A stretch of 58,715 nucleotides of DNA, filler included, from Ionaspis alba (GCA_964255285.1; 6 parts of 6 records of this genome joined end to end with filler, not necessarily neighbours in it), one strand, 5' to 3'; shown: positions 7,475 to 53,046, counted from the first letter of the whole stretch. Notes: generated from the sequence alone by a model not told the origin. Program-made: numbers and translations.

Positions 7475-9741
7475 CGTGCCGCCGTATGAGTCGTGCTCTT
7501 GGCCAAAGGCCTGAGAACTATGAGCCTGGCCAGAAAACTGTGGCTGCTGCGCTGGGTCCTCGGTTTGAACGGGAGGTAGAGTGGTTGCGGTCTGCAAAGC
7601 TGGAGATGGTGAAGGAGTTTTCAGACCAATTCCAGAAGTCGCACAAGGGAAAGAAGATGCGCTTGTCAGCGAAGAAGTATATTGAGTGCCGCTGTAATTG
7701 GGAGATGAGTCCAATGATCCGATCCGAGTAGAAGATGTCCCAGAAGAGGCACTGGCGGGGTATGTTTGCGGTAATTGCAAATTAGGCAATCGATCGCTTG
7801 ACAGCAGGGAGCGCTGTGCGGAGTGGTGATTGTACCACGGCACGTCGGTGGGACCTCGAATGTGAACCTGGGAGATGGATGGCAGCTCCAGCTTTTCGGT
7901 ATTTTTGTGAAGCGGCCGTGAGCGACCAATTGACAAGTCCTGCGCGGAATGGATATACCGGAGCTTGTTGAATGAGTTGACCGGCAGGATATAGTTATCA
8001 GGTCCAAAGTCAATTGAAACCCTAGCAATATGTACCGTCTCCAATGCTTATCGAGTCTTACTTTGTCGCGGATGTTGTGGAGTTCAGTGAATCGTCGAGG
8101 CAAGGCCGTGGCGCAAAGCAGTGAGGCTGGTGTACAGTGAATCGGAAGCAGGCTCCGTGATAGGCAATGCGACGCTTGGGCTAGATGATGGAGGTGGTGA
8201 ATCAATTGCTGCAGTGATGGGGATCCAGAAGTGCAGTATCGTATGGCTCGTTTCAGGTCATTAAAGAGGGAAGCCCTGAGGCTGTTTGCTCGTTTCAATG
8301 CAGAGGAGAAGGCAAAGGGAAGTATGTCTTTGGTACTGCTTTATTGGGATAGGCGGAATCGCGAAGGTGAAAGAAGAAGCGCTTTTGTGCTGCGCGTCTA
8401 ACGGGTACTGGCGTCGTCGTGCAATGAAAGATCGTGAAGAATCGTATGTATCATTGAAGTTCGTAGAGATGATGCTTGCGGCGAATTGGACCTTTGGGGA
8501 ATGGTTTCCCTAGGTGCTGCAACTAAAACCTAGGCAAGCTAAATCAGCGAGGAGCGGAGCTATGGTTTTGAGGGCTAGCTAGTAGCAGCGAATTGCGGCG
8601 ATTGCTCACTGATTAATGAAATTGCCAGGTCTCTTACCTCCCTATCACCTTGAAGAGAGTCATCAAAGGGGGTGGAACCAAATCGCGAAGCGCGGATTGG
8701 GGAGAGAGGGGAGAAAGAGATGGAGATTGAGAGGATCAACGGGCAAAGAAAGTCAGAAGAGGAGGTTGGGGTGCGTTGGTTGGCCCTAGCGCCAAAAACT
8801 GCCTGGCGCGATTACACCGTACCTTCTCGATATCCAATTATCCTCTCTGATACGGTCTTGCAACCCCCGAAGCTCAAATCACACTGGACTGGTTGCTCGC
8901 GCGGTCGCAATGGCTGATAGGGGTAGGTGGTATGGCCGTCAAGAATTGAGGGTTTCCTCTGTCGAAATGGCGACGAGAGTGGATGATTATGAAATGAAAG
9001 ATTGAAATGTAGGTACCGTTGCGCGGTCGTTGGTCGACCAGGTCCTCGATACTCCAATTGGTGCAAACGGCCGCCTGGGTAAAATCTGGCAGAACCGCGA
9101 AACCAGAGATTGTCTCTGCAGCAGTGGTGGCAGAAGTTAATTCCCAGTAGAGGCAAGGCAGGGCCAGAAAGGACCGACGATTCTGCTGCGATTGCGTTGC
9201 GCAGTGCAGCGGCGGAAGAACGGACCCTTTGTACACAAGATGCAGGATGCGGGACGGCGCGCCAAAGGGTGGGTAGGGGAGCTTTTTTACACTACTCTCG
9301 TTGGAGCCGAAAGGATAGTATGATATCGCTTCAGTGGCCGCGTTCGAAAATGGAGAAGTTGGTCCCGGTCGGCTCAGCAGAAGGGGGAACGAGGTAACCC
9401 CAGGTCATGCACTTTGCGAGCTGCATATCAGATGCCTGCCAGTTTGCCCAGAGCTTTTCTCTTCTCTCTCTTGATCGCTCTCGACGATGGACAGATGAGT
9501 GGTTAACACCCCGGTGTGGTGGCTCCGCAGAATGGGATAATTATGGCATCAAGGGAGGGGGGCACAGCGAACAGGGCAAGTACCAGAACGGTCTGTGTGC
9601 CGTTGGAGGAAAAAAAGGCAAAGGGCAGGACTGGCGTTCTAGTCGTACAAGCGTCGGCTTGCGTCTGGGCTGCAGCGGAATCGTCGCTCGACATGCAGGC
9701 AAGCGAGGGATAATCAGGATCCGGCTGGGGCAGGGGGGAGG

Positions 9742-9841
9742 NNNNNNNNNNNNNNNNNNNNNNNNNNNNNNNNNNNNNNNNNNNNTTAATTAATTAANNN
9801 NNNNNNNNNNNNNNNNNNNNNNNNNNNNNNNNNNNNNNNNN
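9742..9841. other. Artificial contig linker (N44-TTAATTAATTAA-N44)
   Basis: Stop codons in all six frames inside exactly 100 bp; recurs five times. Confidence 0.97.
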
Positions 9842-9965: not shown

Positions 9966-11120
9966 TCACCTTATAACAAGGCAGCTCACAGCCTTAGGTA
10001 TGTGTATGCCCTGCGGTCCCTTCCCGTGCATCTTAGATTCTCCAATCTGTTCTTGATAAGCGTCCCCTAGCACCAACTTTCTCACCACCTCCGAGCACTC
10101 GTTCAATTCCTTTTCTTTTCTGCTATTGCACCATCCCGCGACCAATTCGAGCCCAAATGCAGCCAACCGGAGTCGCTGAAAAGCCAGAAGCGGCCCTACC
10201 CAGTCTTCTGCTAGATCCACTCGCAGAGGGCGTTCATTGACCTGCAGGAGCACTCGAAGCTCTTTGAGTCCGGGCAAGCAGGTACCAATGTCTTGGCAGA
10301 ATTCATCCCAACGCTCATCGTGCGCAGTTTTCCAGTGCACGTCCTTGGTTCGGCACGGTTCGCCGTAGGTTGCGTGCTGTATGTAGATTCGCTGGATCGC
10401 TGCGGCTGCCATCGGCCCAATAGATGAGAGGAATCGTCGCATAACATGAAGAGATGTGAAACCGAATGAGCTCTTGCCGTAGAAGACGGTCGTGGCCTCA
10501 TTACGTACTTGGTGACAAGTTGAGAGCATTGATAGTAGGCTGTTGGTGTATTGAATCGGTAGTATGACACCATCGACAGTCCTGCGTTTGATGTTTTGCA
10601 TCCGTCGCACCCTCGTAGATTTCTCGCTCACTCTTGGCTTCCAGAAGAACGACATCCATCCGCTATTAGCAGTTTGTGCAAGGCAGCCCCAGCCAAACCT
10701 TGGGTCAAGAGTTGATCGTTCTCGCAGATACCGCCAATATGACAGACCTGTAGACTTTTTGATTTTTCGAATTTCGAAGTCTTGTCGTGGAAACGCAAGT
10801 TCGTATATTTGGTTCCGGATCTCTCCAGGGAGAGAGAGAAAGCTTGTAGGATGGCTCGTGAGCCTTCCTTTAGTATCGAAGTTTTCTGCATCTGCACAAT
10901 TGACAACGTTGTTGCTGACTGGAATATCGGTCTTGCTAAGCGGAGGGAGGTCATTCTTATCGGGCAGAAGTATAACCTCGTCTAGTAGTTGGAGATCCTT
11001 CTTGTTGAACGCGAGTTCATCTTTCTTGTATATGATAGGAAACTCTTCTTTGTTGTTTTGCTTTGCCTGACGACCAACACGTTGACCCGTAGCGGCTGCT
11101 TTGGGAGCTCTTCTCGTCAT
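9966..11120 (-). CDS. Hypothetical protein with F-box-like/DUF7730-type motif
   Basis: FLSLPGEIRNQIYELAF and LLSMLSTCHQVRNEATTVFYGKSSFGF motifs; likely start MTRRAPK at 11120 (the ORF track runs through an N gap upstream). Confidence 0.75.
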   Translation of the reverse strand: MTRRAPKAAATGQRVGRQAKQNNKEEFPIIYKKDELAFNKKDLQLLDEVILLPDKNDLPPLSKTDIPVSNNVVNCADAENFDTKGRLTSHPTSFLSLPGEIRNQIYELAFPRQDFEIRKIKKSTGLSYWRYLRERSTLDPRFGWGCLAQTANSGWMSFFWKPRVSEKSTRVRRMQNIKRRTVDGVILPIQYTNSLLSMLSTCHQVRNEATTVFYGKSSFGFTSLHVMRRFLSSIGPMAAAAIQRIYIQHATYGEPCRTKDVHWKTAHDERWDEFCQDIGTCLPGLKELRVLLQVNERPLRVDLAEDWVGPLLAFQRLRLAAFGLELVAGWCNSRKEKELNECSEVVRKLVLGDAYQEQIGESKMHGKGPQGIHIPKAVSCLVIR

Positions 11121-11869
11121 GCTGAACCAGAGCTTTCCAGGAGCTGCTAGTCGTGTAGGTGTAAAAGAGACTCTGAGANNNNNNNNNNNNNNNNNNNNNN
11201 NNNNNNNNNNNNNNNNNNNNNNNNNNNNNNNNNNNNNNNNNNNNNNNNNNNNNNNNNNNNNNNNNNNNNNNNNNNNNNATTGATAGTGGTCAATAGCAAC
11301 AACTGAATATGCACTATGCTGTACCGACAATAGGACCCAAACAATTGCGTCGTTTGATTGGTCAATCTCAGTGAGAAAGGAGCCTTGACCTGAACAGTAC
11401 AATGCTAAGAGAGCAGGGAGGAATATCGCGCTAGACGTGTATGTACTCAAAGTAAACTTCACCTCTTGTAATGGATGAGGAAGCTGCAAGGTAGTGAGCC
11501 TAGTCGGCCAGCCATCAATTGAACGAGGAGAAGTCTAGTTGACAGAGCCTGATATCATGTCGTCGCTAAGTCTAACTGCACCGTGAGGATTGCACCAGGA
11601 TGGGAGGTGGGTTGGCCCCAGGGCCATCCAGCACGGATGGAACGAGCTCCATGCTAGACCGATATTGTCGAAATAATGAACGATATCCTTATGCAATGTC
11701 GATAGAGCAGTCGCGTTCCGCAATTGTTTTGATGCCGAAGTTGACTTTACGAATGGCGAAGCCTAGCATCGACGTTGAGAAGTCGATGTTCAAGATTCTC
11801 GTGACGTCGATCCTCCACCCAAACCCCAACCTCAAATAAACAACATCCTTACATGGTGAAGTAACACTC

Positions 11870-19553: not shown

Positions 19554-19653
19554 NNNNNNNNNNNNNNNNNNNNNNNNNNNNNNNNNNNNNNNNNNNNTTA
19601 ATTAATTAANNNNNNNNNNNNNNNNNNNNNNNNNNNNNNNNNNNNNNNNNNNN
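19554..19653. other. Artificial contig linker
   Basis: N44-TTAATTAATTAA-N44. Confidence 0.97.
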
Positions 19654-21025: not shown

Positions 21026-24000
21026 TCAAAACCCAAAAGAATCCAACAGACTACCCACATCCGGTTCCTCAAATATCTTCGGCGGCACACCTTGATCCCT
21101 TCCACCAGATTTCATAGTTGTCGTCGGAGACTTCGGGACCGGTAAATCATCGACTACGAGACTACTTCTCCTCCGCAGCATCCGGCGGGGATCTGGGATG
21201 GTATCGATGGATTTCCTCATATCCTCGGGTCTGAGGAAGTCCCAATTACGCACTTGGGTCTGTGTGAGTAAATGAGGGTCTCTGGATAGAGAGAAAAACG
21301 TACCTAGGTCCAAAGCAAGGAGATCGCAGCCCATGCGGTCGTAAAGACGGGCCGTTTGCATCACAAACTGCCACTCAGCTCGTGGGGAGATTTTTGAAGC
21401 GCCTTTGAGCGTTTGAAGAGTCTTGTCCCGTAGTTGCTTGTACAGGACTACCAATGCCGGATCAGTTGTCAAGTAGGACTTGGCTTCCTGAGTAGGAGTC
21501 TCTGGCGTGTCTAGGAGCATGTAAACTGGAGACTGCGACCTTTGTCAGCATTGATCTATCGTAGAGTATCATGAGGAAATGATTACGATCAAAGCTCGAA
21601 CAGCCATGTCCCTCCTGCCGAGCATCCAAAAGGTCCACATCGCCAACCAACGATTACCTTGCAGGGCGGCCAGGGGAAGGATCTTATCCTCGAGCAGCTC
21701 CCGAAACACAGGACCTTCGTCTCCTTCGTAAACCCGGGCGACGGCAACGGCTAATTGTAGATCCTGTAGTTGATTGGAACACACGTGGACGGCGTCTCGT
21801 AAATTACCAGCAAGAAGGAAGAACGCTACAGCATATTCTGGAGCCGGTCAACGCACGTCTCTCTGCTGAGCCAACTGTTGCAGACGTACCAAATCGTCGT
21901 TTGCCAAGCAAGGCATAAGCATTCTTGAGAGCTGCCGTCTTCCATCGAGGATCACTGAAATTGTTTGATAAAAATTTCTGTGTCGATGATTGTTCTCTAT
22001 GCCACGAGGCCATCCTCCAGAGTCCCACGAGAACCGTCTTCTTCTTCAGTGCTAAATAATATAGACTGCAGTCGATGGGGTTCTTCTCGTCGGTTTTGGT
22101 GTATTCATTCCTTGCGATGATCTCAAATTGAGCCCGCTATATGTATGTCAGTCCTGCTAGATAGACGGCTCCAATGCAATACGCACAAGGGCAGTGATAT
22201 CCGTCATCCACATGAACATGCCACTTTCCCTCACATGTTCCCAGAGCATTCGACCTTTAAAGGATCTTGACACTAGGTCCACCAGGATATCTTGGCTCCC
22301 ACTCTGAAATGCCCATGCAATCTCTCTCCATGTGATGCCGACCTGCCGTTCCGGGGCTTGCGCTTTTCGGAGCATGTGCTGTCGAAAGAATAGTAGATAA
22401 CGCATGGCATTGTCGTCCATGGAACGTCTGTGTCTCTCTGCTGTTGCCACACACTCTATTAGGTCTGCTAAGTCAAACTGTTCTGGACTTGTCAGGTAAG
22501 GTATTGGAAGTCTGGCCAGGATCTCGTTGAGTGTGGCGGCTAGTTCTTCCGTGACATTTTCTGGCTCGTCATCGTCCGTAAAGTCGGCGTAGGCAGATTG
22601 CATTTCTTTATGACTGATGTGCGTGATGACCTGTATTCTCTTAGTATTGTATTTGAAGACATACACAATGTGTTACCTGTTGCTCCTCATAAAATTCGTT
22701 CGCCGAAAGACCAAGCAAACTATTCAAGTCTTCGCCATCACTGAAAAACTTCAAGGTCTTATTGAGATTGACGATGATCTTCTGTACCAGTGCGAGTTTG
22801 CCTGCTAGAATACATTGGGCTAGGAATTGTGGATGAAAGACAGGGAGGGGACCATTCAGTAGGGCAACAACGTCAAACAGATTCATAGACTCATGCTTGT
22901 GAGCAGGTATCGAGAAGTCACGGATCATCTCATCTGTAGTGGTAAGAAGTTTGTCATACACGAACAATTGGTTGCCAGCTCCAATGACTAGGTTGCCACT
23001 GCCCATCCAAGTACTATCACCAATTATATGTGGAGTTGAGTCCCGAATGTGGATTTCTCGTATTGGAGCCCACGCAGGGCCTTTGTTCAGATAATCATAT
23101 CGTATCTGTGCGAGAATTACTACTCTGTGAGGGAAGCCAACGGCTAGAATCGATTGCTGGTCAGGTGTTGATGTCCAGTCCAGATCTTGAATTGTTTCGT
23201 GTATGTTCCGATCATTTTCGTATTCCAATTGACCACTAGTGGTATCCCATATCGAGAGGCCATTCCTAGTCGAGTCGACAAGAGCTATTTTGCGAATAGA
23301 GCTGCCGCTTGCCAGCGTTGGTCTCTCGATACCTGTTTCGACTGTTGCCGTAACTAGCCAGTCCACAGAACCAGCTTCTACGTTGATCTTGGCCGTCCAT
23401 GCACGAAGCACGCCAGCGCTGGTGTAAGATATTGCAACGTCCTTGGCGAACGTGTCGAGGAAGCCCGCAATAGTTGGCGATGACCCAGCGGGATCGACGG
23501 GAACAACAGATAGGAGATCCTTTTGCTCCCCGAGATTGAATGAGCAGAATTCTTTCATCAGCGGACGTACAACACTGATTCTTCTGGCACTTTGTCCTCG
23601 GCCTTGATATAACTGAATTTGCCAAACAACACCTTTCATGTGTGAAGATATCGTCGCTAAATAAATGAACGGCGTATTTTCTTCTGGAGAAGGAAGTTGT
23701 AAAAGGCAGAGCGGTTTCCCATCAACTGTGAACTTGCACGAAGCCACTTGATCTGCTGCAAAGTTTCGTGCATCGAACAGCGTTGTATGGCGATGGTGCA
23801 GATTTGCGACAATGTTTCCGTCATCTACGAGGCACGTCCTATGGATATGCTCGGAAGAATCCAAAAAGCTGCATCGAGATAAGCCCATATCATTCTGGAC
23901 ATCCTGCTGCTTCCAGATCAAAGCTTGGTTGTCATTGGTCCGGGATATGAGAGCTCTTCCGCTAATGGTTCGTATGATTTTCTTGATGGGGCCTTCGTGG

Positions 24001-25348
24001 CCAGTCCAGAGAGCCTTGACCTGCATTCCAGTTTGGCCAGCAGAAGGCGCAAAGAACTCATCAAGCTTGCCACCTAGCCAGACTATTCTGCCATCAAAAT
24101 GATGCACCAGTATCGAGTAATTGGATCCAGACTCATCACCACAGAAATTAAGGAACCTGACATGCTCGTCGCTCGGGCCCGTCGCTTGTGGAAATAGAAC
24201 CTTGAAATTCTCGACATGTGCAACGTTGAAAACATCTTTGACAGTCCGAGCCTTAGAACCAACTCTCTCTAGACCCCATGCAGACATATGTCCCTTGCTG
24301 TCCAGCACTACACAGACTTCCGGCTTCCGCTCTGCGATATCGAGCAGATGCTCCAATGCGGGTTGCTGTTCGGCTTGACTGATAGTAAGCTGGACAGCAT
24401 TATCTATCGCACGACTGAAGTCATGACTATCAATGATGAAGACGTAGCGATCCCTTGACTGAAAGGCATGTTCCAGATATCGAGGCTGGATAGACTCTTG
24501 AGCATCAATCTCCGCCCAGAGCTGCAAAACCTGCAGACCATGTGGGTCCGTAGCGGCCCAGACTCTGACCCTATTGTCGGCACATATCGTATAAAGCACA
24601 TTATCAATCCCTTGCTCTTGATGCCCAGATTTGCGCCAATGTATGCCAGTGATCGTCGCGGGATGAGAAAGGTAACTAAAGTCGAACCGAACGTCGTCTG
24701 AAGCATAAGAGAGCCTTCTCCAGATCTTGACCAGGCGGTCATGTCTTGCCGTCGAAGCTATCAAACTGGCGTCATGGGAGAAGTGTGCAAAGACCACTGG
24801 GCTTGAGAGCGAACGACTCCAGATCAAGGCCTCTTCTCCATTAGTCTGGTAAAGTTTCAAGGATGACGAGCCGACCAAAAGCTCTTCTGAAGTGCCCCAC
24901 GACAATGTGCACGGAAAATTCTTGTCCTCGCGAATATTGAAGGTGTGCTGAAGCGACCACTATGTTAATTAGACCATCAGCACCATTCTGTCAGGTTTAT
25001 AATGCTTCTCCTATCCACCTTTAAGACGCCTTCCTTCTCGCCGAAAGGTCGATGGATCTGTACAGTCCCTCCCGAGCAAGTAGCTATCTTCCCGGTATGC
25101 TCATCGATGATGACAGCATCCAAGTCACTAGAATCATCATGGTAGATGGTCTGTAAGAGGTCGTGCGGTCCCGCCAGTATCACTAGAGCATGGCCGGAGA
25201 TATAGGCCTAGTATGACTCGAGTCATCAGCAGGAACATATACGTTCAGAGTGGAACTGGTTCCTTACAACGAGGCGCCTTCCACCCCATTTTGCAGTACA
25301 GACGGCCTGTAAAGTCGCCTGTGGCTTACCTGGGAGGACGGCTCGCAT
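21026..25348 (-). CDS. RAV1: RAVE complex subunit Rav1 (WD-repeat, rabconnectin-3/DmX-like), multi-exon
   Basis: Start MRAVLPGKPQ; WD repeats; C-terminal motifs LNGPLPVFHPQFLAQCILAGK, WREIAWAFQSGSQDILV, WKTAALKNAYALLGKRRF, LYDRMGCDLLALDL, SLLDSFGF*. Confidence 0.93.
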
Positions 25349-29354: not shown

Positions 29355-29454
29355 NNNNNNNNNNNNNNNNNNNNNNNNNNNNNNNNNNNNNNNNNNNNTT
29401 AATTAATTAANNNNNNNNNNNNNNNNNNNNNNNNNNNNNNNNNNNNNNNNNNNN
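29355..29454. other. Artificial contig linker
   Basis: N44-TTAATTAATTAA-N44. Confidence 0.97.
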
Positions 29455-31624: not shown

Positions 31625-32867
31625 ATGCGTCAATTTTGCTGGCGGTCAACTACAATCTTCAATGGATCACGGGTGAACGCCTTCATTGCTCGCGGACCCA
31701 GGACTACTCAGCAACAATGCTTCTCCACTCTTGACTTGTCCAAGCCTCATCACGCGGAGGTCCAAGTCGGCTCGTCCGGTACGATCATCCTTGAGTAGGC
31801 CCCCTCTTCCCCACCTCGAGACTCGTCCAGCTCTGACGAAATGCTACAGTATACTCAATCCGCCTCGGCCTACGCAAGCAAATCCCGTCATCTTCTACTT
31901 ACCCCGCGGGCCTTTCGCTCAGGAGACCAGCCCAGAGCCTCATAACCTTTCGTCGCTAGGCTTCGACGCCAATGCCGTCGTTGTTCGTGTCAACTATCGC
32001 TTCTCGGCAAAGCATCGATTCCCTACGCCTGTGCACGATGTCTCAGCTGCCTATGACTGGGTGCTCACACATCTTCTTCCTCGTTCCACAACCTATAATG
32101 GTTGGTCAGACTCAACCAGTACGGTGGGGTTTGGAGTGTGTGGAGAGCTGCTTGGAGGCAGCCTCGCCGCGATGCTCGCTCTGACCGAATGCCACGCTGG
32201 CAAAACTGGGATACGAGCAGCGGCCTTTGGCAATCCGATCACAGACTGGACAGCTATGCATGTTGTTCACAACAACAAAATCGCAGACTCGCCCAGCAGT
32301 GCGCAACCTTTACCCACTGTCTCGACAAAGCGTGCACCTCGGAAGGTTGCAACTCCAGATTCTTGGACTGCCTTCTCCACTAACTCTACTCTTCCCTCAT
32401 CTTCTCTACTTCGAGCCCGCCACAATCTCTTTGCGATGCCAGAGCACTACTTCGACCCTTTCGCCTCGCCACTGCTTTTTTTTCGCACAGCAAGCAGCGA
32501 CATGCCTCCTGACCTCGCATCCGAAGACCCGATCGTTGACGATGACTCTTTGCTCGAATTCATCAGGAAACGCAGGGCTCATCGACGGCATCCTCCTACT
32601 GGGTCTGGGCTTCTTCTACCAAAGATCCGAGTGCAGCTGGGAAAGGAAAATCTGCTGAAGGATCAAGGTATTGAGCTTGCAATGAGTGTGATCCGTAGTT
32701 TCGAGGTCAGTTCAAGGGATAGTGGAGGAGATCTTATGTCGGGCAGGAATTCTGCTCGTGAGGAAAAGATGGTCGAGGTTGTGGAGTCTGGTGGTTTGGG
32801 TCTGTGGACGGAGGATGATCTCGCGAACATTGGAATCTGGTTTGGGAATGCGCTACGTTCGTCATAG
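31625..32867 (+). CDS. Alpha/beta-hydrolase-fold protein with degenerate catalytic motifs; intron 31795-31849
   Basis: VVRVNYRFSAKHRFPTPVHDVSAAYDW (HSL-family signature), GELLGGSLA at the nucleophile elbow, YFDPFASPLLFFRT; Arg/Ser/Thr-rich N-terminus. Confidence 0.85.
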
Positions 32868-39151: not shown

Positions 39152-39251
39152 NNNNNNNNNNNNNNNNNNNNNNNNNNNNNNNNNNNNNNNNNNNNTTAAT
39201 TAATTAANNNNNNNNNNNNNNNNNNNNNNNNNNNNNNNNNNNNNNNNNNNN
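39152..39251. other. Artificial contig linker
   Basis: N44-TTAATTAATTAA-N44. Confidence 0.97.
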
Positions 39252-39453
39252 ATTTGAGTTTTTATATTCGAGTTTTATAAGTTTTAATATATTGATCTTT
39301 GTTGTCGAAGCGTGGCAGCGGCGTTTGTCGATCGAGATCATACATTGGCAACATGGATGAGATTCCCCAACAGTGCCAGCTACGGTTTAGCAGCGCCGTG
39401 AAGACAAGGCTTATACCTGATATATTTCCAACTTGCAATCTAGCTATAAAATA

Positions 39454-39831
39454 GGGAGGTTCTGCAGCGTCCGTAAAATTAAATTCCTTATCTAATTAAA
39501 CCGTAGATAATAGTTAAAAAGCCTAATCGGGCGTAATCTAACGTATTTTTTCTGGGTAAAAAATCGGATTTTTTATTTAATCGAGCGATTTTAAATAATT
39601 TCGTGATTTAATTAAACGATAAATTATAATTAAAATATAAATTATCGCGATTTTATCGTGAATCTATTTCAAATTATTATATATCTCTTAAATCAACGTT
39701 ATAACGGTTTAATTTTTCAATAATTGTCAAGATCAAATTATATAATATATCTAATATAACGTTGTATTTTATCTGTATTTATAGATTGGATAAAGGAAGA
39801 ATTTAAGCTAACCGACGCTGCAGAACCTCCC
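39454..39831. mobile_element. MITE-like non-autonomous DNA transposon (378 bp) with TA target-site duplication
   Basis: Perfect 18-bp TIRs GGGAGGTTCTGCAGCGTC (39454-39471) and GACGCTGCAGAACCTCCC (39814-39831), imperfect extension inward, TA on both flanks, very AT-rich non-coding interior. Confidence 0.85.
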
Positions 39832-40366
39832 TAATATTACACTATAGCGCGGCAATACCAGCAAATTCTTTTGGGAAAAATTATTTTTATAAACTGACAA
39901 ATTCCATAATAATCTAACGTTATCGAGTTTATATTATAAAATATAATATCAGTTTACCGTTTTTTATTTTATTTTTAGTTTCTATTGTCAATTGTAGCGG
40001 GCGCATTGTGTTCATAAAAAAAGATAAAATTTGGCAGCTACTGTTGAACAGGATTTGAGATGTTCCAGGTCTAGCCACACATAAAGCAGAATTCTCTTGG
40101 TTCGCAGACATTTAATCTGGAACAATGGAGTATCTCTACCTCAATCAATACAATCAATTGTACATCGCCAATACACTGCTACCTAACAGCCATATACTTC
40201 GGCGAGAGCTCTATGTAGTGGTTTCAGGTCCAATGACCTCTATAGCTACAGCTCTGTGAGCTACTGTATCACACATCAACCCATGCAGCACCCCCTTCGG
40301 CACCTCCTACAGTGCCTCTCCGCCCCTGTCAAAAGACTCATAATTGAAACGCTTCTGCTGGGCACT

Positions 40367-42130
40367 CTACTGTTTTCGCGGAGTAAACACTAGCTTCTGA
40401 CTTCGGTCTGCCATCACCAGGCCACCCTTGTGGATATTCTTCGGTCGTTCTGTCTGCCCTGGGGGGTAAGAAACATCATAATTGATAAGAATATTGGCAA
40501 GAACCATCTTGATTTGAGACGCTGCAAAGAAGCGACCAGGACACGCGGTTTTACCTTGTCCAAACGCAAGACTTTCTGGCCCAGTTGTAGCAAACTGGTG
40601 ACGGTGCGCCTCGGTCTTGGCCGATATTCTCTTGTTGTAGAAGCGGAGGCCGTCAAATTGATGAGGATTCTCATAAATATCGGGATCATGGGCTACAGAG
40701 TCGCTTGGCATAGTGATGTAGGTGCCGGCAGGGAGTGTGGCGCCATCAGTAAACTTGATGGGCTTTGCAACCCTACGGTTGAAAGTCACTATTGACCCAA
40801 GTTAGAACCCCAAGTGTCCGGGCATGTAAGTGATGCGTGGCAGAGTTACTCACTAAGTACGGTCTGATTCATCCGCTGTGACTCTTTCATGAAGCTATCA
40901 AGCTTCTTCAAGCTGTTGATGGCAGCCAGTGTAAAACCTTGTTCTCCAATGACCCTCTCGGCCTCTTCCTGAAGGCCCCGCATGTACTGAGGCGCGGCGC
41001 AGAGGTCAAAGAGCACATGAACAAGGGTTGCTGAGCTTGTATGCACTGCCGCCAAGGACATGAACAGCATGTTGTGGCACAGGACATTGGCATTCCTGTC
41101 AGATCCACGTGCTGACTCTGTCATCCACTGTATCATGTTAATGGGCTTCTCTTGGCTCTTATCCTTGACAGACGATGCCAAGGTGAGTTGGTGGTTGAAT
41201 TCATCTTTAAAGACTCTCTTGGCCACCTGCAGATGACGGGCAAGTATTTTGGTTCCGTCCAACCAGGGAGCAATGAAGGGCCGCATGAAAGGCGGGTAGG
41301 GACGTAATTGCATGGCCACGGTGACTACGTCCATCGAGTAGTGAGCTGCCGTTTCAAGCCATTCCAAATCCCGGCTGACCCTCGTCCCTCCAAGCATTCT
41401 GGATGCAGTTCCGGCTATGATTCGTACCATAGTCTCATATGCTTTGACTTCCGTTTTCCCGCCAATGCGTTGTGATAGCCAGTAACTGGCTTCTTCGTTG
41501 AGTGGACTGATCAGAGCATCTTCCAAAGAGTCAGTCATGCTTTAGAAAGTCTGGATATGAAAGATTGAGTCATTACGGAGGTTGCGGGTTAACTGGTCTT
41601 TGCAAACTTCGATGTGCATCGGGCTCCGAAAAACTACATCAAGATTTGTTTGAGAAGCCATCAATCTCTTTTCGCATAGTTCAGCAAACACGCTCAGACC
41701 CAGACACAATTTAGACAGCTTACCTCCCGTAGTCCGTCGACCATGTCCAGGGATCCATCTGGGACAGTTCTGTTGATTTCCTCGATGTATTTTGGGCTTA
41801 AGACAACTCGCGGCACATTCAATGTTTGAACCAAGAACATGCCGTTTTTATACTGGAGATAGAGCATCAGTACAGCTCGCTCAGCCATAAATGGATTCTT
41901 TTTACCTTGTTGTAGCCTTCATTGATTATCTTAGGCCCGTTCTTGAGAAAGTCGCGTTTTGCTCCAACTAGGCTCAGCCCAAACCATCCTGGACCCTTTC
42001 CAGCTCGCGGAATCCGATCCAGGTTTGGGCCTGCGAGAAAACGATAATACCCCAAAAGGAAAATCACCAATGCGAGTCCGAATGCCCCAAGTGTTTGAGT
42101 CGCATTGTCGCGCTCAAGATAATCGTTCAT
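40367..42130 (-). CDS. Cytochrome P450 of the terpene-modifying (ent-kaurene-oxidase-like) type, 5 exons, about 510 aa
   Basis: N-terminal TM; I-helix SLAAVHTSS; LKKLDSFMKESQR (ExxR); FDGLRF; heme motif FGQGKTACPGRFFA. Exons 42130-41906, 41852-41724, 41667-41577, 41519-40854, 40788-40367 total 1533 nt in frame. Confidence 0.95.
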
Positions 42131-42538
42131 TTTGGCTATTGTGCTTGCTGTCGTCGACAAAAGTGATCCGCGTTGTCCACTTTTTGGGGGATGTCTGCAT
42201 GTGAAACTGATCTGTATTGATTGTGAGGTGTTTTCCCAATTGCTGAACGACTCGGAACATGTATGATAGTTATGTGCGGTCCGACAATAATCGGATATCT
42301 AATTGAGGCGCCCCGGCCTGGCCGATTGCCAAGGTGCGTAATCTTTCCCTGCACCGACCATGCCTTTTTGGGCCGTCCGATGATCATCGGCAACTCGGTA
42401 ATACTGTATAAACCCTCCCAAGGTGGATTTCTTTATTCGAACCGATGTGAATGTCATAGTCTTCGATATATCAATACTTAATTTCACCATCATCGATTCT
42501 GAAAGGCATATTTCGAACCACGGCTCATTTTGTCTATC
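42131..42538. promoter_or_regulatory. Bidirectional promoter with two CCGA-N6-TCGG palindromes (42281-42294, 42377-42390) and a TATA box (42407-42412)
   Basis: CCGACAATAATCGG and CCGATGATCATCGG read directly; TATAAA lies about 125 bp upstream of the synthase ATG. Confidence 0.7.
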
Positions 42539-45500
42539 ATGGAAGTCGTCAACCTTGCAGACAACGCCAGGGCGTTGCTCCGAAGAACCTTGTCACATTA
42601 TGACGAGCAGTATGGGCTAGGCGCAATGAGCTGTGCTGCATATGATACAGCCTGGGTATCTTTAGTCACCAAGACTATCGATGGAAGCAAGCAATGGCTT
42701 TTCCCCGAGTGTTTCCAACATCTCTTGGCCACACAATCAGACGAGGGTGGTTGGGCGATTGACTCGGGAGCCCAAATCGATGGAATCCTGAACACAGCAG
42801 GTCCTCTGCTGGCTCTCAAGCGCTATGCTGCAGAGCCTCTCCAGCTTCAGCACAATGCTCAAGAGATTGCCGGCCGTATCGGGAAGGCGACACTCTCATT
42901 ACGATCCCAGCTGGCTGCTTGGGACGTATCCACAACCAACCACGTCGGCTTTGAAATCATTGTGCCGGCCATGCTTAGTCTTCTGGAGAAGGAAGACTCA
43001 TCACTAGTCTTCGAGTTTGAAGCCAAGGCGGCTTTACTGAAGATACATGGCGCGAAAATGTCACGCTTTCGACCAGAGGCACTGTACGGGCCAAAGCGAT
43101 TGACGGCACTCCACTCGTTGGAATCTTTCATCGGCGACATCGATTTTGATAAAGTCAAACATCATACAGTGCGAGGCTCTATGATGGGATCGCCCTCATC
43201 GACCGCAGCATATTTGTTGCATGCTTCGCACTGGGACGATGAATCCGAGGCTTATCTTCGACATGTGATTCAATTCGCTGCTGGCCAGAATAGCGGCGGT
43301 GTTCCAAGTGCTTTTCCTTCCACGCATTTCGAATGTGTTTGGGTGAATATCGCTCAGGGGCGATTATCATGACCAGAAATCTGACTTGTCGTGCTGCAGA
43401 TTTTGTCAACGTTGCTCAGAGCGGGCTTTACACCATCTGATTTGGAGGGTGTAGAGTTAACAAAGATGACAGAGATACTGGGCAATTCATTTCGTAAAGA
43501 AAACGGTGTTCTCGGGTTTGGTATGGCCATTTCATCAACAGGCATCCTTCTCAATACTTCAACTGATACCCATCACAGCCCCCAGCTTCGAAGCTGACGT
43601 GGATGACACTGCGAAGGCCATCAGTTGTTTGAACGTACTCGGCCGACCTGTCAGCCCAGAGAGTATGATCCAAACATTCGAAGCAGATACTCACTTTCGC
43701 ACTTATGCAGGCGAGAGAGATCCCAGCTGTACTGCAAACTCCAATGCACTACTGGCGCTTCTGCATCAGCCTGACGTGTCCCTATATTCTAACCAGATCC
43801 TGAAGATCACCAAGTTCCTTTGTGATTACTGGTGGACAAGCGATGGCAGGATTGAGGACAAATGGGTATGTTGTAGAATGTGTCGCAAGATACTCATTTA
43901 CGAACTGACTATGATCCATAGAACATCTGTCACCTCTATCCATCTGTCCTCCTAGTTGAGGCTTTGGTGGACTTGCTCTTCTTGATAGAGCAGAATAAGC
44001 TGCCTGGGGTGTTCAACGAGGATATACAGTCCCGAGTTGCCGTTGCGATTTTTCAGGCCTGTTTTCGAACTTTATTGGACCAACATGCAGATGGATCATG
44101 GAACCAATCTCTCGAGGAGACAGCCTACGCCGTCCTGATACTCACCGAGGCTCGACGGCTAGCTTTCTTTGATAGGCTCGAAGAACCCTTGAACGACGCT
44201 ATAGCTCGTGGTGTCGTCTTCATCAACTCCATCAGCGACCGGCCCCTGAACTACATCTGGATAGAGAAGGTCAGCTACGCGTCACCTCTCCTGACAGATG
44301 CGTACGTACTCGCAGCGCTGATGGCTGCCACCTCTCCACCTGGTCCTTTTGTTGGACGTAGCCTCTGGCCCGAAGGATATATGACGCATCTGGACAAATA
44401 TGTCAAAAATTTCCATGAGACTCCCCTCTTCCACTCGCTCCCTTATTGGGAGATGGAGGGTTCGATGATCGAGTCCGCCCTATTCCTTCCACTCCTGAGA
44501 GCACAGAGACTAGTTGTGTTCCCATTCGACGATGCAGAGGACATCAAGTACTTCGATATGTTGCCAATGTTCTGGACAAGTACGAATAATCGTCAGCGTA
44601 CCTACGCGCCTACCACGTTCTTGTACGAATTGGCTTTACTTTCCCTCTTGGTCTTCCAGATTGACGAGTTCATGGAAGATGTGGCGGCATCCTTATTCGT
44701 TGGTCAATATGATACCCTCCGACAACTCATAGAAAATCTCTTCGTCCAGGAAGACCACGCAAAGATCAATGGGTCTGCAAAGATCAATGGGTCTGGGAAG
44801 ATCAATAGCTCTGAAGGTCTGCAATTCGTCGACCCGACCAAGCGTAGTAAACTTCTCGGTAGCTCCGAGAAAGTAACCTACGAGGAAGTCGTTCACTACC
44901 TAAAAAAGTTCATCAACTACCTTGAAGATCACCCCTCAGTTCGGAACGCGAGTGCTTGGGACAAGGACATGCTGCATCGAGAATTGCGAGTCGCCCTCCT
45001 GGCTCACACACAACAAGCAGATGATAGCTCTCGCTATAACGATGAGCGAGGATCAGAGGGTCAAGTGCGAAAACCTACATCGTCCGATACGTTCTTCACC
45101 TGGGTTCGGACCACGTCTGCAGACCATGTAGGTTCCACTTACGCCTTCTACTTCGTAAGCTGCATCCTTGGTGCTTCACATACGCCTGGAGGCGGTGGTG
45201 AGGACTGCTTTCCTTCCGGGCAGGAGAAGTACCTCGCGAATGCCGTAATGCGGCACATGGCTACCATGTGCCGCATGTACAACGATCTGGCATCTGCGGA
45301 AAGAGACAACGCCGAGGGCAGTTTAAACTGCGTTGATTTCCCCGAGTTTGACCAGGAGGGGTCATTGGCTGCCAGGAAGAAGGCAGTGTTTGAGGTTCTG
45401 AATTTCGAAACCAATGGCTTCACTAATGCGTTTGCGAGGCTTCGTCAGGCGGCAAGGGATGCTGCAGTCAAGAGAAACGACAGGGAAGCAGTGAGACTCG

Positions 45501-45604
45501 CTGACCGACGATTGGATATCATCGAATTCTTCGCAGACCAGATGGACCTCTATGGTCAAGTGTGGTGCAATGCGGATAGATCACGGCCACTACCTGGGGT
45601 GTGA
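42539..45604 (+). CDS. Bifunctional class II/class I diterpene synthase (fungal CPS/KS-like), 4 exons, about 964 aa
   Basis: [18 protein letters not shown] and QHADGSW QW-like motifs, class II DxDD (ADVDDTAK), class I DEFMED and NSE/DTE-type [15 protein letters not shown]. Exons 42539-43342, 43400-43520, 43579-43865, 43922-45604 total 2895 nt in frame. Confidence 0.96.
44762..44814 (+). repeat. In-frame 18-bp tandem repeat x3 ([18 protein letters not shown]) in the diterpene synthase
   Basis: aagatcaatgggtctgca / aagatcaatgggtctggg / aagatcaatagctctga. Confidence 0.85.
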
Positions 45605-46227: not shown

Positions 46228-47021
46228 TTAGGGGCTCGTTCCACGATGCCTGGACAGCCAGTACTGGGCGGACAGTCCATCCAGGAGGTGAAGTGCTGGA
46301 TACCTTCTGTGGGCAAGATTAAGGAAGTCTCTAAGCACGGGAGGGCAGCGCTGCCCAACGATGCGGTAAACGGACAAGACCATCCGTCCCAGAACAGCTC
46401 GTTTATTCTTCAGCCGTATGCCATTCAGAATGCTGCCAAAATGCCACAAGTAGGCGCCGCAGGCTGGCACAGAAACTTCGTCCAGGGCGCCGGGCAGGAG
46501 TTCATGGAAAGAAAGTAGGGCGGCAATGCTGAGGATGGCTTGTTCCGAGAACTGAATGACTCGCAACCCGGCTATCGATTGTCGGTACCACTCACTGCCA
46601 TCCGTCGAAGCCTTCCAGCTCCGTAGGGCTTGGTCGACAAATCGTGTATTTGTACTGTGGCATAGGAGGATCCGGATACAGTTCTCAGAGTTCTGGAGCG
46701 AAGGCACCTCGATGAAGATTCTGGCCCTATATTTTGTCAGCAGGGATTCTCGGCGACTGACGTGTGGGCTTACGCAATGGGGATGAAGCTTTGTATCGTT
46801 TCGAACTTCAGATTGTGCGCCCTGTCGGTGGGTATATTCACCATGTCAGGCGCCGCAACGGGGATGAACAGCCGGATATGCCTTATTATGTCGACCGGCT
46901 TGACATCGCCAGCAAGCCGAGTTTGAGAAAGAGCTTTCTCCATTCTTTGCGCATCGAAGTCTCCGAATTGTTGCTGCCTCCGTGACGCCAAAGAGATGAC
47001 CAAGCCTTGCAAAGCTCTCAT
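46228..47021 (-). CDS. Hypothetical two-exon protein (intron 46773-46727); 5' end uncertain
   Basis: Two ORFs join in frame across a consensus intron (GTAAGC..GCTGAC..TAG); no recognised family. Confidence 0.5.
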
Positions 47022-47470
47022 TTACTGAAAACCGCCCGCTGAACCGTCCGCGGAGCTGACGCGGTGTTTTGCCTTTCTTGATGCGAGAGGAGTTGAAGAG
47101 GCCGTGAAACAGCAACAGATCGTGAATCTCTGCTTCTAGGTCTATTGCTGACAGAACCCCCAACGCAAGGTCCTCCTTCTGCCGGCAGAGATCCTCGAGG
47201 CGCTGGATCTACCAACCCAGGCCAGCCCTAACAGGCTGCCATGCAAGGGCATTGTCAACGTCACCGATTAAGTTAAGGCCAAGTAATCAATAGTCCCAGA
47301 AGAATTCGGCAAGTATGTGATCGTCGGAGGCCTGANNNNNNNNNNNNNNNNNNNNNNNNNNNNNNNNNNNNNNNNNNNNNNNNNNNNNNNNNNNNNNNNN
47401 NNNNNNNNNNNNNNNNNNNNNNNNNNNNNNNNNNNACCCACTCAATCAGCATCAACAACTTTGGGCGGAG

Positions 47471-48362
47471 TCAGTAGTCGCGGTAGTATTCCTCGAGGCC
47501 CGTGCTAGTGTCTGATAGGAGTCCCATGCGAGCATTCCGGATAAATCGACCGACAGCCTTCTGTCTTGCGGCCAAAGGGCCGTACTTTCGAATCTCCTCC
47601 TCGCTTGGCAAGGACACATCATATCGAGGATCTTTGTCCGGGAATAATGCCAACCCTAAGAGTCCATAAGCTCTAGTAGATTGTCGAGTCCATAAAGAGA
47701 TTTTCCAAAAGAGAGGATCCTAGCCCCTTGCCAGTCGACAAGTCCCATGCGGCCGTCATCATCCATGAGGATGTTCGTTTCGGAAAGATCGTCATGAGCC
47801 AGCACGGATGGGTACGATGGTACGAAAAGCATCCAGAGCTTGGATTGTACTTTGTCTAGGACTTTAGAAAACCGATGGGGCAATGACTCGCGAAGAAGTA
47901 CCAGATCCTCTGTGTATTCCCGTTGAACTTCCTCGATATCATGCGGTGGCTGTCGATGAGTCCAAGATTCAGCCGAATACCTGAGAAGTAAGCGCCAAGC
48001 TTAAGGTGGTGTAGATGTCTTAACGTACTTAGCTAGGTCCACTACCGTCGTTTGGCGGTCAACGCTTTGAGCCCTTATAATGGCAATCCCTCTCATGTGT
48101 TCCATCTCATAGACCGACAATGGCGATGAGGACCCGATCGTTCCGTGCTCCCTGTAAGACAGTACGATTCGTGGATGAATCTGCACGGCAAGCCTCGTGG
48201 TCTCTATATCTATTTGGATGTTCCTGCTCGAAATTGGAGGATTTTGCAGTTGTTACGGTTACTGGCGGTGATAGTATAACTAAACTGGGCCGGGATAGGA
48301 ACTGGGTCAACAAGCGGCCCAACAAGACGCTGAGCAAGCTCGTCGAATTCTTGTCGCAGCAT
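47471..48362 (-). pseudogene. Degraded APH/choline-kinase-like phosphotransferase
   Basis: VPIPAQFSYT..ILQFR then a frameshift near 48210; VLAHDDLSETNIL..GLVDW (Brenner-type motif); in-frame TAG at 47656-47658 before GWHY. Confidence 0.75.
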
Positions 48363-48937: not shown

Positions 48938-49037
48938 NNNNNNNNNNNNNNNNNNNNNNNNNNNNNNNNNNNNNNNNNNNNTTAATTAATTAANNNNNNN
49001 NNNNNNNNNNNNNNNNNNNNNNNNNNNNNNNNNNNNN
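48938..49037. other. Artificial contig linker
   Basis: N44-TTAATTAATTAA-N44. Confidence 0.97.
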
Positions 49038-50371
49038 GCCTCCTCAACATCAAAACCAATCAACCCCCTCACATCCACCTCCCTCCCCCTCAAACCCTTG
49101 ACCTCCCAAAACACCCCCTTCGACTCCAACCTCCCTCCACTCACAAACGCCTCGCAAGCCTCTCCCCAATTCCGAAAACACATCTTCGCCTGCGGCGACC
49201 TAGCAAAAAGCAACGGAAACAAATGCGGCATTGCTTCATACTCCTCCCACCACACACAAACACCCTGCTTAGCAGCCGTCTGCGCAACAATCTTCGCCGA
49301 GTCAACGAACTGTTCCTGACCGCAAGCAAACCACATCGGTGGGGCTCCGGTCCAGTCCGTGGTCGCGGAAGGACTGACGAGGGGATGATAGAGCATGGAG
49401 GAATCGCAGTAGATGTGGCCTCGGGGTGGGGACGATGGCCAGATATCATCGGCCTGGAAGTCAGGCTTGAGAATTGGTGTCTCGCTTGGGAAGATGTCGG
49501 TGATTGCATTGGTGGTCCAGGAGGGGAGAGAGAGGGTTTGGTCTAGGGCTGCGCTGATGGCTGTTAGGCCGGCGGGGAGAGCTAGAGGGACGTTGCGGCC
49601 GTGGAAACGAATGGTTGAGGTGGAACGAGGGTGGAGGCGGTGCGCTTTGAGGAGGACTTGGAGGAGGGAAAGACCGATGCTGCTTCCGATGCTGTCGCCG
49701 GCTATGATGATTGAGGAGGGGGAGACCGCCGAGTGGTAGGAGCCCGGGGGAGGGGAAAGGAGGGAGAGGTAGGCGATGAACACGTCCAGCAAAGCGGCTG
49801 GGAAGGGGTGCTGAGGAGCAAGGCGGTAGCGGACTGAGAGACATCGGCCTTTGGTGAGCTGGGCTAGTTTTGCTACTGTTTGGCGGCTAGTTGCTGGGCC
49901 GTTGAGGCTGCGGCGGATGACCAAGGTCAGCGTCCCAAACTTATTGAACGGATGTTGCAGGGCATACTAGAAGGCTCCACCGTGTATATAGAGGATCGTG
50001 AGAGGGTTCGAGGTTTCCCTCATCAAGGCATCATATTTCTCTGCTTCGGAGATCAATAGTTCTTTCGCTTCCGGGCCAACACCTGGCCTATAGCCCGTCC
50101 ATTCAGCAGCCACAGCTACTTGCTCAGGGACCGTATAAGTTTGACCAGTGTCTCCAAGCCTCTCAATGACTTTCAGCAAAATCTGGCGAGCATCATCTTC
50201 ATGAGGACCCCGGAAAGACACTCGACTGACCCACATCGGTCCTTTGGCTCCGGGGTCTTTCAACGTCAATGTCTGCCGCTCAGATACTGTCTGCATCTCA
50301 GATCTGGTTGTTATGGAAGCTCTCACTTCCTTAATAGCTCTCTTGATCGAGGCTGGCGAGGTGAAATCCAT
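49038..50371 (-). CDS. HSL-family lipase/esterase, 3'-truncated at the contig end; 5' end uncertain
   Basis: ILYIHGGAF, YRLAPQHPFPAALLD, GDSIG nucleophile motif, EAMPHLF; one intron after HGGAF. Confidence 0.9.
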
Positions 50372-51239: not shown

Positions 51240-53046
51240 TCAGACCTTGCCCGCAGTAATATCCTCCGATCCCCTTGAAGACGCCGCATCCGAAACATTG
51301 ATCTTCTCCCCCTCCTCAGTCTTCGTCTCCCTGACACTCCACCTGCGAATCACATGGCCCTTCCACGCCAGCACTCCCACCATCATCCCAGCAAAGACGC
51401 AAAAGAAAGCCGCCATACCGAACAACCACCCAGGACCACCGACAGCCTCCTTCCACGGCTCAAAGAAGAACGGCAACGCGAGCCCGAAAGCAATGCGGTA
51501 CATGTTGAAAGCGATAGCTGTCTCATTAGGCGATGTGATGTAGCACTCGATGAGATAGTTGAGCCCCACCGGAACCGACAGAATAGCCGTGAAATTGACG
51601 ATGTAGGAGCCGAGCGCCAGGACCATGTAGTGGAGATGGTATTGAAGGGCGGCTCCGAAGATGCCAAGACCGATTGGTGTGAGCAGGACTGGGAGGAACA
51701 TATTCCAGAGTCTGTACTCGGGATGCCAGACGCCGTTGCTGAAGCGGCGGGAGGCCCAGAGGGGGATTTTGTCGCCCATGAGGACGCCGGCTAGTTGGGC
51801 GCTGAGGAGACCGATCCAGGCTACGAATGTGACTGTTACAGAGGTCTAGTATTAGAACGTCTTCTGCAAAATGGCTGTCAAAGGATGATTCGGGATTTGT
51901 GACTTACAGTAAGCGTTTCGTAGAGGAGTAAAGCCATAACCTCCGGCTGAAGGAGGCGTTTGCAGAAAGATGGTACTCAGGACTGTGAGCATTATGGTGA
52001 AGCCAAATGCCACGAACGTGTAGCCACCAGCAATGATTGCTATTGGTGAAGCCGCAATCTTGAATGGTGCAATCGCGCGTTCGACCTAGAAATCGCCATC
52101 TTCAGCTCCTACACATGAAACTATAGCTGGATAACTCACGAAGTCAGCACCACTAATGCGTGGCACAACCTTAGTTCCAGGCAAGAAAGTAGCAATCCTA
52201 TCAGGAACAAAGGACTGTGGCCGATCCGGGTACCGCACCGCGACATCTCCTCTCGTGAACCCGGTTTCCTTCAAGAAAAAGAAGACCAGAATAACCGCCA
52301 GCCCAATCGGACCTATAGTCCACCAGAGGGTATACGGCCAGGGATTATTCTGCACGATAAACCCGCCAATAGTAGGACTAGCCACAATCCCCAGCACAAA
52401 ACTCAACTCCAAGCAGGTAAACGCCTTCCCACGCTGATGCAGAAAAAAGATATCCATAACATAAGACGGGGCAATCATAGAAGTCATCCCGCCAAACAAG
52501 CCAGCCATCATGCGCGACATCACGAACGCGATATAATCATTCGTATGTGTCATCGAAGCGCCCCAGATCTGGCAGACGATGGTGAGGAGCAGGCTCCAGA
52601 AGATGACAGAGCTTCGACCGACGACGCGGGTCAGAGGGAGGAAGATGAGAGGTCCGACGAAGAGACCTGCGACTGCGGCGGGGACGGAGTAGGAGAGTTG
52701 GATGGGCGTTTTGCCTATGTAGGTTTTTCGTTGCAGGACGTAAGCTAGTTGGTGGCAGACTGGGGCGAGGGTGCCGCCGAAGGAGGCGAAACAGAGGACG
52801 GCTAGCATGGTGTATTTTTTGCGGTTTGACCAGTTCTAGGATCTGTTAGCCGGGGAAATTCAATCTATAAGCTTAGGAGTAGAGTGGAGGCAGAAGTATT
52901 GGACGTACCAATGGATCTTGGGGATCATTGCTGGGCTGTGGGATCAGGACAATGGCACCTTGAGTGCTTTTGCGCGTGGTCTTCAGTTCGTGGTCTTCCA
53001 TGACTGCGATGTGACCGCTCTTGGTTGAAGACTCCAGATCACTCAT
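51240..53046 (-). CDS. MFS transporter (DHA1/HOL1-like), multi-exon
   Basis: LIPQPSNDPQDPL|NWSNRKK, VVGRSSV, DIFFLHQRGKAF, LKETGF, VWHPEYRL; many TM segments. Confidence 0.92.

Follow-up and report, generated by a model that had tools for sequence, protein, structure and literature searches.

Which compound, if any, is made by the two divergent genes that lie between positions 40367 and 45604 of a 58,715-nucleotide stretch of DNA filed under Ionaspis alba (GCA_964255285.1; the whole stretch is called the window here)? One of the genes codes for a cytochrome P450 (P450), the other for a labdane-related diterpene synthase, and a preliminary description had taken the pair for a minimal diterpenoid cluster with a synthase like the bifunctional copalyl diphosphate synthase/kaurene synthase (CPS/KS). 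Labdane-related diterpenoids of fungi include aphidicolin, pleuromutilin and the gibberellins; to our knowledge only few of the fungal labdane-related cyclases have known products. We favour, with a probability of roughly 55%, the reading that the pair is an intact and transcribed two-gene diterpenoid module in which geranylgeranyl diphosphate (GGPP) would be converted to copalyl diphosphate (CPP), cyclised further at a class I site and oxidised by the P450. The pair is a further synthase-P450 module of the type represented by the fungal synthases PaDC2 and SonA and not a new kind of system, and its product is not predictable from the sequence.

The P450 gene (40367..42130, minus strand) was modelled from stop-to-stop open reading frames (ORFs) and the raw sequence as five exons (42130-41906, 41852-41724, 41667-41577, 41519-40854 and 40788-40367) that code for 510 amino acids. 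Its introns are 53, 56, 57 and 65 nt long, and an in-frame TAA codon is taken out by the third of them (41576-41520). Two exons matched the Pfam family PF00067 (1e-24 and 1e-13), and the deduced protein could be aligned end to end with nine full-length homologues, collinear and gap-free at the exon junctions. The haem-binding loop FGQGKTACPG (40535..40564, minus strand; cysteine codon 40543-40541) conforms to the pattern FxxGxxxCxG and is kept in all ten rows of this alignment, with few substitutions in some rows; the ExxR motif is present as ESQR. The synthase gene (42539..45604, plus strand) comprises four exons (42539-43342, 43400-43520, 43579-43865 and 43922-45604), separated by introns of 57, 58 and 56 nt, and codes for a three-domain protein of the alpha-beta-gamma type with 964 amino acids that is collinear with 13 homologues from end to end, again gap-free at the exon junctions. 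All seven introns of the pair are of the GT..AG type (53-65 nt). The oddities at the joints are substitutions common to homologues, namely His or Tyr after LTRNL in the P450 and Val or Thr in FEC-x-W in the synthase. The two genes stand head to head with a gap of 408 bp from ATG to ATG (42131-42538), and the preliminary description was thus correct in calling both of them intact and in placing them at this distance, as follows from the gene models, the homologue alignments and the splicing of all seven introns described below.

No Pfam family was assigned to the synthase exons, even at E 0.01; the recognition of the synthase therefore rests on its homologues, on a profile comparison with the PDB and on the predicted fold. 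With a family profile, the beta-gamma part was matched to two solved fungal CPS structures (8v0f and 9q3i, about 1e-180), and weaker matches to plant diterpene synthases were obtained (about 1e-27). The motif AYDTAW is found at residues 34-39, its YDTA core being present in all 33 aligned rows (YDTAR in one of them). The class II general-acid motif DVDD (residues 315-318; 43596..43607, plus strand) likewise corresponds to DxDD in 33 of 33 rows. In the alpha domain, the class I metal-binding motif DEFME (residues 652-656; 44663..44677, plus strand) follows the DExxE motif as defined in PMC3323652 and appears as DE[FY]xE in every one of the 33 rows, and the second, NSE/DTE-like metal-binding motif NDLASAERD (residues 858-866; 45281..45307, plus strand) is intact in 31 of them. 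The C-terminal block takes the form Q-x-YV in 27 rows out of 33; the window synthase and SonA have QVWCNADRS. An AlphaFold model of exon 4 reached a predicted local distance difference test (pLDDT) score of 70.9, with values below 50 at exon-4 residues 276-316, and a Foldseek search with this model returned class I terpene synthases at the top (probability 0.97-1.00, E 1e-3 to 5e-2); the sole other protein among the matches listed, the prenyltransferase DabA, has the same fold. The alpha domain also carries a disordered insert in which an 18-nt tandem repeat of 2.7 copies (44759..44806, plus strand) codes in frame for an AKINGS peptide repeat. Other homologues have unrelated inserts rich in N and G at this position.

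To which lineage does the synthase belong? Exon 4 had 173 relatives at E of at most 1e-10. The highest exon-4 identity was that of an unnamed protein from the Joint Genome Institute (92%), followed by Paraconiothyrium brasiliense (81%; 85.7% over the full length), SonA of Paraconiothyrium archidendri (80%; 83.9%), Xylogone (62%; 69.5%), Periconia (57%; 69.5%) and many Xylariaceae (about 50%). A search among longer proteins added a homologue of Diaporthe amygdali, the 90% cluster of which includes B2DBF1/BAG30962, that is PaDC2. In a tree with outgroups the window synthase falls into a clade of five rows with SonA, P. brasiliense, Periconia and Xylogone (support 100), and this clade is nested in a PaDC2 clade of 24 rows (support 99); aphidicolan-16β-ol synthase forms the sister group of the latter (support 100 in two trees). 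A second tree, rooted with the aphidicolan-16β-ol synthase of Phoma (Neocamarosporium) betae (PbACS), supported a group of 18 rows including Purpureocillium with 100/100 and the node without Purpureocillium with 88/91. The CPS/KS of the gibberellin type and the Pyricularia enzymes are distant from the window synthase in these trees. Hence the label CPS/KS-like in the preliminary description, for which a phylogeny had been suggested as the check, has to be given up: the window synthase has the enzyme architecture of the gibberellin-type CPS/KS and is likewise combined with a P450, as that enzyme is with the ent-kaurene oxidase CYP503, but it is only 42.5% identical to the Fusarium oxysporum 'ent-kaur-16-ene synthase' and belongs to the PaDC2 clade, whereas the CPS/KS form a separate and distant one. 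The tree and this low identity rule out an ent-kaurene or gibberellin reading of the locus, and since the synthase stands outside the CPS/KS lineage, kaurenoic-acid-like products are unlikely. The broader part of the former claim, a labdane-related synthase of the bifunctional type clustered with a P450, stands, with catalytic motifs intact in both proteins.

The closest protein with a name is SonA (UOW59923.1, 952 aa), with 83.9% identity over 951 aligned residues and with all motifs identical to those of the window synthase, including the unusual C-terminus. As this homologue has already received a gene name, the orthologous cluster may have been characterised already; a search of the full-text literature, the coverage of which leaves out most subscription journals, yielded nothing on a SonA product or on son genes. 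PaDC2 of Diaporthe (Phomopsis) amygdali (PDAC2_PHOAM) shares the clade, the three-domain layout and the motifs, its synthase being 58.7% identical to that of the window and its adjoining P450 (N8I77_013310) 66.5% identical to the window P450. It differs in having QVYVIRDIS instead of QVWCNADRS at the C-terminus and NDLGS instead of NDLAS in the second metal-binding motif. PbACS, which belongs to the aphidicolin cluster, has the same motif set at 46.2% identity, but it stands in the separate clade sister to that of PaDC2. Further genes of the aphidicolin cluster presumably code for a GGPP synthase, two P450s, a transporter and a regulator. PbACS works via syn-CPP (PMC4004862).

The pairing with a P450 is a conserved property. 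Consecutive accession numbers or locus tags place a synthase and a P450 side by side in 11 other species, namely Xylogone sp., Xylaria arbuscula, X. nigripes, X. hypoxylon, Xylaria sp. FL1042, Poronia punctata, Fusarium oxysporum, Diaporthe ilicicola, D. amygdali (in two assemblies), Purpureocillium lavendulum and Purpureocillium takamizusanense. A search with P450 exon 4 gave 49 relatives (proteins of 388-2000 aa), of which those of Xylogone and Periconia were best, with full-length identities of 83.7% and 85.1%, respectively; a Purpureocillium homologue with 62.9% identity carries the source name 'Ent-kaurene oxidase-like protein'. No Paraconiothyrium orthologue was among these 49 matches, a weak negative given that only proteins of 388-2000 aa were covered. 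The sub-clades of the synthase recur in the P450 tree, and therefore both genes travel together. The same head-to-head pair was found in the one metagenome locus that was recovered (L001), at about 51-71% identity for the synthase and about 60% for the P450; as judged by tblastn, the L001 synthase shares one of the three introns of the window synthase. In L001 a polyprenyl synthase gene (PF00348, 1e-71) lies about 2.3 kb beyond the P450, so that the order is GGPP synthase (83-1297), P450 (3609-5437) and synthase (6155-9224).

Such a third gene is missing from the window. One Pfam scan covered 79 ORFs of at least 110 aa in the whole window, and a second one covered 92 further ORFs of 60-109 aa between 37.5 and 58.7 kb, leaving out the ORFs internal to the pair; three flank ORFs were scanned again. 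Polyprenyl (GGPP) synthases, transcription factors and additional P450s were absent from the results of both scans, and tblastn with the L001 enzyme found no GGPP synthase remnant in the window (best E 1.2). This bears out the statement of the preliminary description that no GGPP synthase and no regulator are encoded here. The comparison with L001 suggests an ancestral layout of three genes from which the precursor gene has since been lost in the window; the window lineage is either without a GGPP synthase partner or has kept it elsewhere. To speak of a minimal two-gene cluster is consequently appropriate for the window itself, where two genes are present, but not for the system as a whole, which is a co-inherited module in 11 species and on a metagenome contig, the latter with a GGPP synthase.

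Is the module expressed? We compared the window with three runs of the RNA type (X1, X2 and X3) and with a DNA-like one (X12). X2 and X3 are polyA metatranscriptome runs labelled biocrust, from one sample, with contigs of 2444 and 2453 nt. All seven introns are precisely absent from the RNA-type contigs and present in X12: one contig of X1 lacks exactly the four introns of the P450 gene, another one the three introns of the synthase gene, and the contigs of X2 and X3 also lack these three. With an identity to the window of about 95.6-96.8%, the transcript contigs come from relatives and not from the strain of the window. No P450 coverage was found in X2 and X3, which is no sign of silence. The AKINGS repeat is 36 nt longer than that of the window in X1 and 36 nt shorter in X2 and X3. 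On the P450 side the transcript contigs of the relative reach 42201, and on the synthase side they begin at 42451, both within the shared divergent promoter region of 408 bp (42131..42538). This region contains two CCG-N8-CGG sites (42281-42294 and 42377-42390), the second of which is a perfect 14-bp palindrome CCGATGATCATCGG. They could be binding sites for a zinc-cluster regulator encoded outside the neighbourhood. The intergenic region of L001 has a CCG-N9-CGG site that likewise begins with CCGATG.

Sequence differences between the window and its relatives are informative with respect to selection. Of 219 differences in the synthase 40 were listed, and among those listed 27 are synonymous and 13 non-synonymous, an excess that would fit with purifying selection. 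These data bear on the possibility that the pair is a decaying relic, silent or inactive and without a product. The lack of a GGPP synthase or regulator nearby, the flanks with a miniature inverted-repeat transposable element (MITE) and AT-rich or orphan sequence, and the degenerate look of the P. brasiliense and Periconia homologues could be taken in this sense. However, the reading frames and catalytic motifs of both window genes are intact, spliced transcripts of both genes exist in near-identical relatives, the listed differences show the synonymous excess, and no terminal branch of the synthase and P450 trees is shorter than that of the window (0.028 and 0.056). We therefore regard a relic as highly improbable. 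The module may be decaying in P. brasiliense and Periconia while it is intact in the window.

For an active module the following sequence of events is the most likely one. GGPP would be provided by a synthase encoded outside the window. The class II site between the beta and gamma domains, with DVDD as the acid, would protonate and bicyclise GGPP to copalyl diphosphate, probably of the normal (+) series; the product of PaDC2 is reportedly normal (+)-CPP. The class I site of the alpha domain, built by DEFME and NDLASAERD, would then ionise the diphosphate and close one or more further rings, which may yield a pimarane- or isopimarane-like or related hydrocarbon or alcohol. Finally, the presumably membrane-anchored P450, expressed divergently from the 408-bp promoter, would oxidise this scaffold and plausibly convert a methyl group into an alcohol or an acid. 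The sandaracopimaradiene systems may serve as a plausible chemical model for the pair. In Arthrinium sacchari (AsCPS and AsPS) and in Cordyceps indigotica (CiCPS-PS) they proceed via normal CPP, and genes for a GGPP synthase and for P450s lie in the clusters of these cyclases (PMC10999977). Homologues from Apiospora (Arthrinium) have 35-39% identity to the window synthase among the matches listed.

Several observations weigh against this sequence of reactions. PaDC2 is the sole member of the clade that is tied to a reported product, 'CPP' being the only product of any module member that we found in the literature, and CPP synthesis is the only activity listed for it; class I activity in the clade is therefore not assured. 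Within the window's own sub-clade the NSE/DTE-like motif is gone in two of five rows, the synthases of P. brasiliense and Periconia digitata, both of which have truncated C-termini, and all five rows deviate from the otherwise conserved C-terminal DLYGQ-x-YV-x-x-D-x-S. The absence of a GGPP synthase from the window, as established by the Pfam scans and tblastn, has to be added to these points.

We have thus to consider that the synthase, like PaDC2, might possess class II activity only, with CPP as the sole product and an alpha domain that is structural or vestigial. The P450 would in this case act on a labdane (copalol after dephosphorylation), or a class I cyclase from another locus would take over the CPP. 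PaDC2 is named copalyl diphosphate synthase in UniProt, and BAG30962 is tabulated as 'CPP synthase' in PMC4004862; membership in one clade, the 58.7% identity and the related adjoining P450 speak for the same function in the window enzyme. The decay of the NSE/DTE-like motif in two of the five sub-clade members and the non-consensus C-terminus of the window synthase and SonA point in the same direction, as does the proportion of non-synonymous changes in the partial list of differences, which is 7 of 18 in the alpha domain and 6 of 22 in the rest of the synthase. On the other hand, the window synthase and 31 of 33 aligned relatives belonging to several classes of fungi have preserved the two metal-binding motifs of class I, a conservation not readily accounted for if the site were dead, and the alpha domain is predicted to fold as a class I synthase. 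Moreover, PaDC2 is said to have been assayed in vitro as a recombinant fusion protein, a format that can lose class I activity. On balance, an enzyme with class II activity alone appears rather unlikely to us, although it is the main alternative to the favoured reading.

The pair and its surroundings seem to differ in their ancestry. Rav1 (ORF 22644-24959), the one gene on which the assignment of the host to the lichen fungi rests, has two named proteins among its ten best cluster representatives, and both of them, Loxospora ochrophaea (57%) and Calogaya cf. arnoldii (54%), are from lichen fungi. The pair, unlike Rav1, nests among genes of Pleosporales and Xylogone and most resembles those of unrelated fungi associated with plants. 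To the two Paraconiothyrium proteins the window synthase has identities of 83.9% and 85.7%, both of which exceed the 76.7% between these two, and the same holds for the window P450 with respect to Periconia and Xylogone (85.1% and 83.7%, compared with 78.8% between those two). Lichen homologues in the match lists reach 27-42% identity for the synthase and 29% for the P450. When the three Pleosporales rows were held together without the window, the approximately unbiased (AU) test gave p = 0.040. Because this value is marginal and the group was chosen after the tree had been seen, we claim neither a donor nor a direction.

One cause of this mismatch could be that the pair is foreign to its flanks, either by an assembly chimera or as a segment of a co-sampled Pleosporales-like fungus, and has no link to a lichen-like host. 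The contrast between the lichen relatives of Rav1 and the Paraconiothyrium and Periconia relatives of the synthase (84-86%) and P450 (85%), together with the low identity of the lichen homologues, speaks for such an artefact. X12, the run that contains 95% of the sampled words of the stretch and is probably its source, could be cited in its support as well, for it has two contig variants at 42322-42443 (depths of about 69 and 31) and at 42682-42799 (56 and 27); these variant pairs suggest two alleles or strains in the sample. However, the composition is continuous between the pair and its flanks. No foreign composition of the pair was detected by GC content at third codon positions (GC3) or relative synonymous codon usage (RSCU), both of which lie within the range of the flanking genes, nor was there a break in tetranucleotide frequencies, the correlation between 40-45 kb and the left part of the window being 0.88 as compared to 0.78-0.89 for left-part windows among themselves. 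Related sequence is furthermore indexed in runs under eight organism codes and from nine studies. No assembly gap crosses the window: we regard its 14 runs of N as masking and not as assembly gaps, five of them being blocks of 44+12+44 spaced about 9.8 kb apart (9742-9841, 19554-19653, 29355-29454, 39152-39251 and 48938-49037) and four being runs of 100 N. We hold an artefact of this kind to be improbable. The ancestry mismatch, as far as it can be judged from sequence comparison, would fit with horizontal transfer of the module between fungal classes, a chimeric contig being less likely.

Taken further, these considerations lead to a more specific but speculative proposal that, with all its parts together, is unlikely to hold: the module, uncharacterised in its chemistry, might have moved between classes of fungi, and the pair, as its best-preserved and naturally expressed copy, might after an exchange with Pleosporales now reside in a lichen-type fungus and yield there a diterpenoid acid derived from normal CPP and of pimarane- or isopimarane-like structure. 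Xylaria and Paraconiothyrium produce isopimarane acids and glycosides. Isopimarane-type compounds from both genera are listed in PMC9609704.

To the left of the pair lie the housekeeping genes Sfi1, Rav1 and adenylate kinase, followed by an AT-rich stretch downstream of the P450. The preliminary description had rightly recognised a MITE next to the pair: the AT-rich, MITE-like element at 39452..39833 is 382 bp long and has perfect 20-bp terminal inverted repeats TAGGGAGGTTCTGCAGCGTC (two matches, none expected by chance), and it is the sole copy within the window. To the right there are ORFs without a family, one of which (46231-46845) had a best look-alike in the Atlas with an uninformative score of 0.84, and an APH-like fragment (47656-48000), in the preliminary description a pseudogene but, as the masked run of N at 47336-47435 cuts this gene, only a putative one. 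An alpha/beta-hydrolase of the Abhydrolase_3 family (49040-49966, minus strand) and a transporter of the major facilitator superfamily (52086-52835) are located 3.4-7 kb to the right of the pair; a gene with a fungal-rhodopsin domain is also found on this side. The former conclusion that no further tailoring gene is present thus holds for the immediate flanks only, where in particular no second P450 occurs. Desaturase or other gibberellin-cluster genes were not returned by the Pfam scans of the window. A second Abhydrolase_3 gene is situated on the other side of the region (31677-32867, plus strand). Two ORFs are related to DUF7730, a fungal family of uncharacterised function: one at 9966-11177 (minus strand; E 1e-11, with an additional 2EXR match) is above the Pfam cut-off, and one at 315-1379 (minus strand; E 2e-4, 21 bits) is below it.

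What does the locus then mean for this family of enzymes? The module is widespread, being present in Xylariaceae, Diaporthe, Fusarium, Purpureocillium, Pleosporales and Xylogone, and a copy that consists of two genes, is verified in its introns and is naturally transcribed offers a handy entry for heterologous expression, by which the class I function of the clade and the role of the P450 can be addressed. If the host is confirmed to be a lichen fungus, the module would be a terpenoid module common to lichen and non-lichen fungi. Should the transfer between classes prove true, a diterpenoid pathway of a lichen and the chemistry of the PaDC2/SonA clade would become directly testable.

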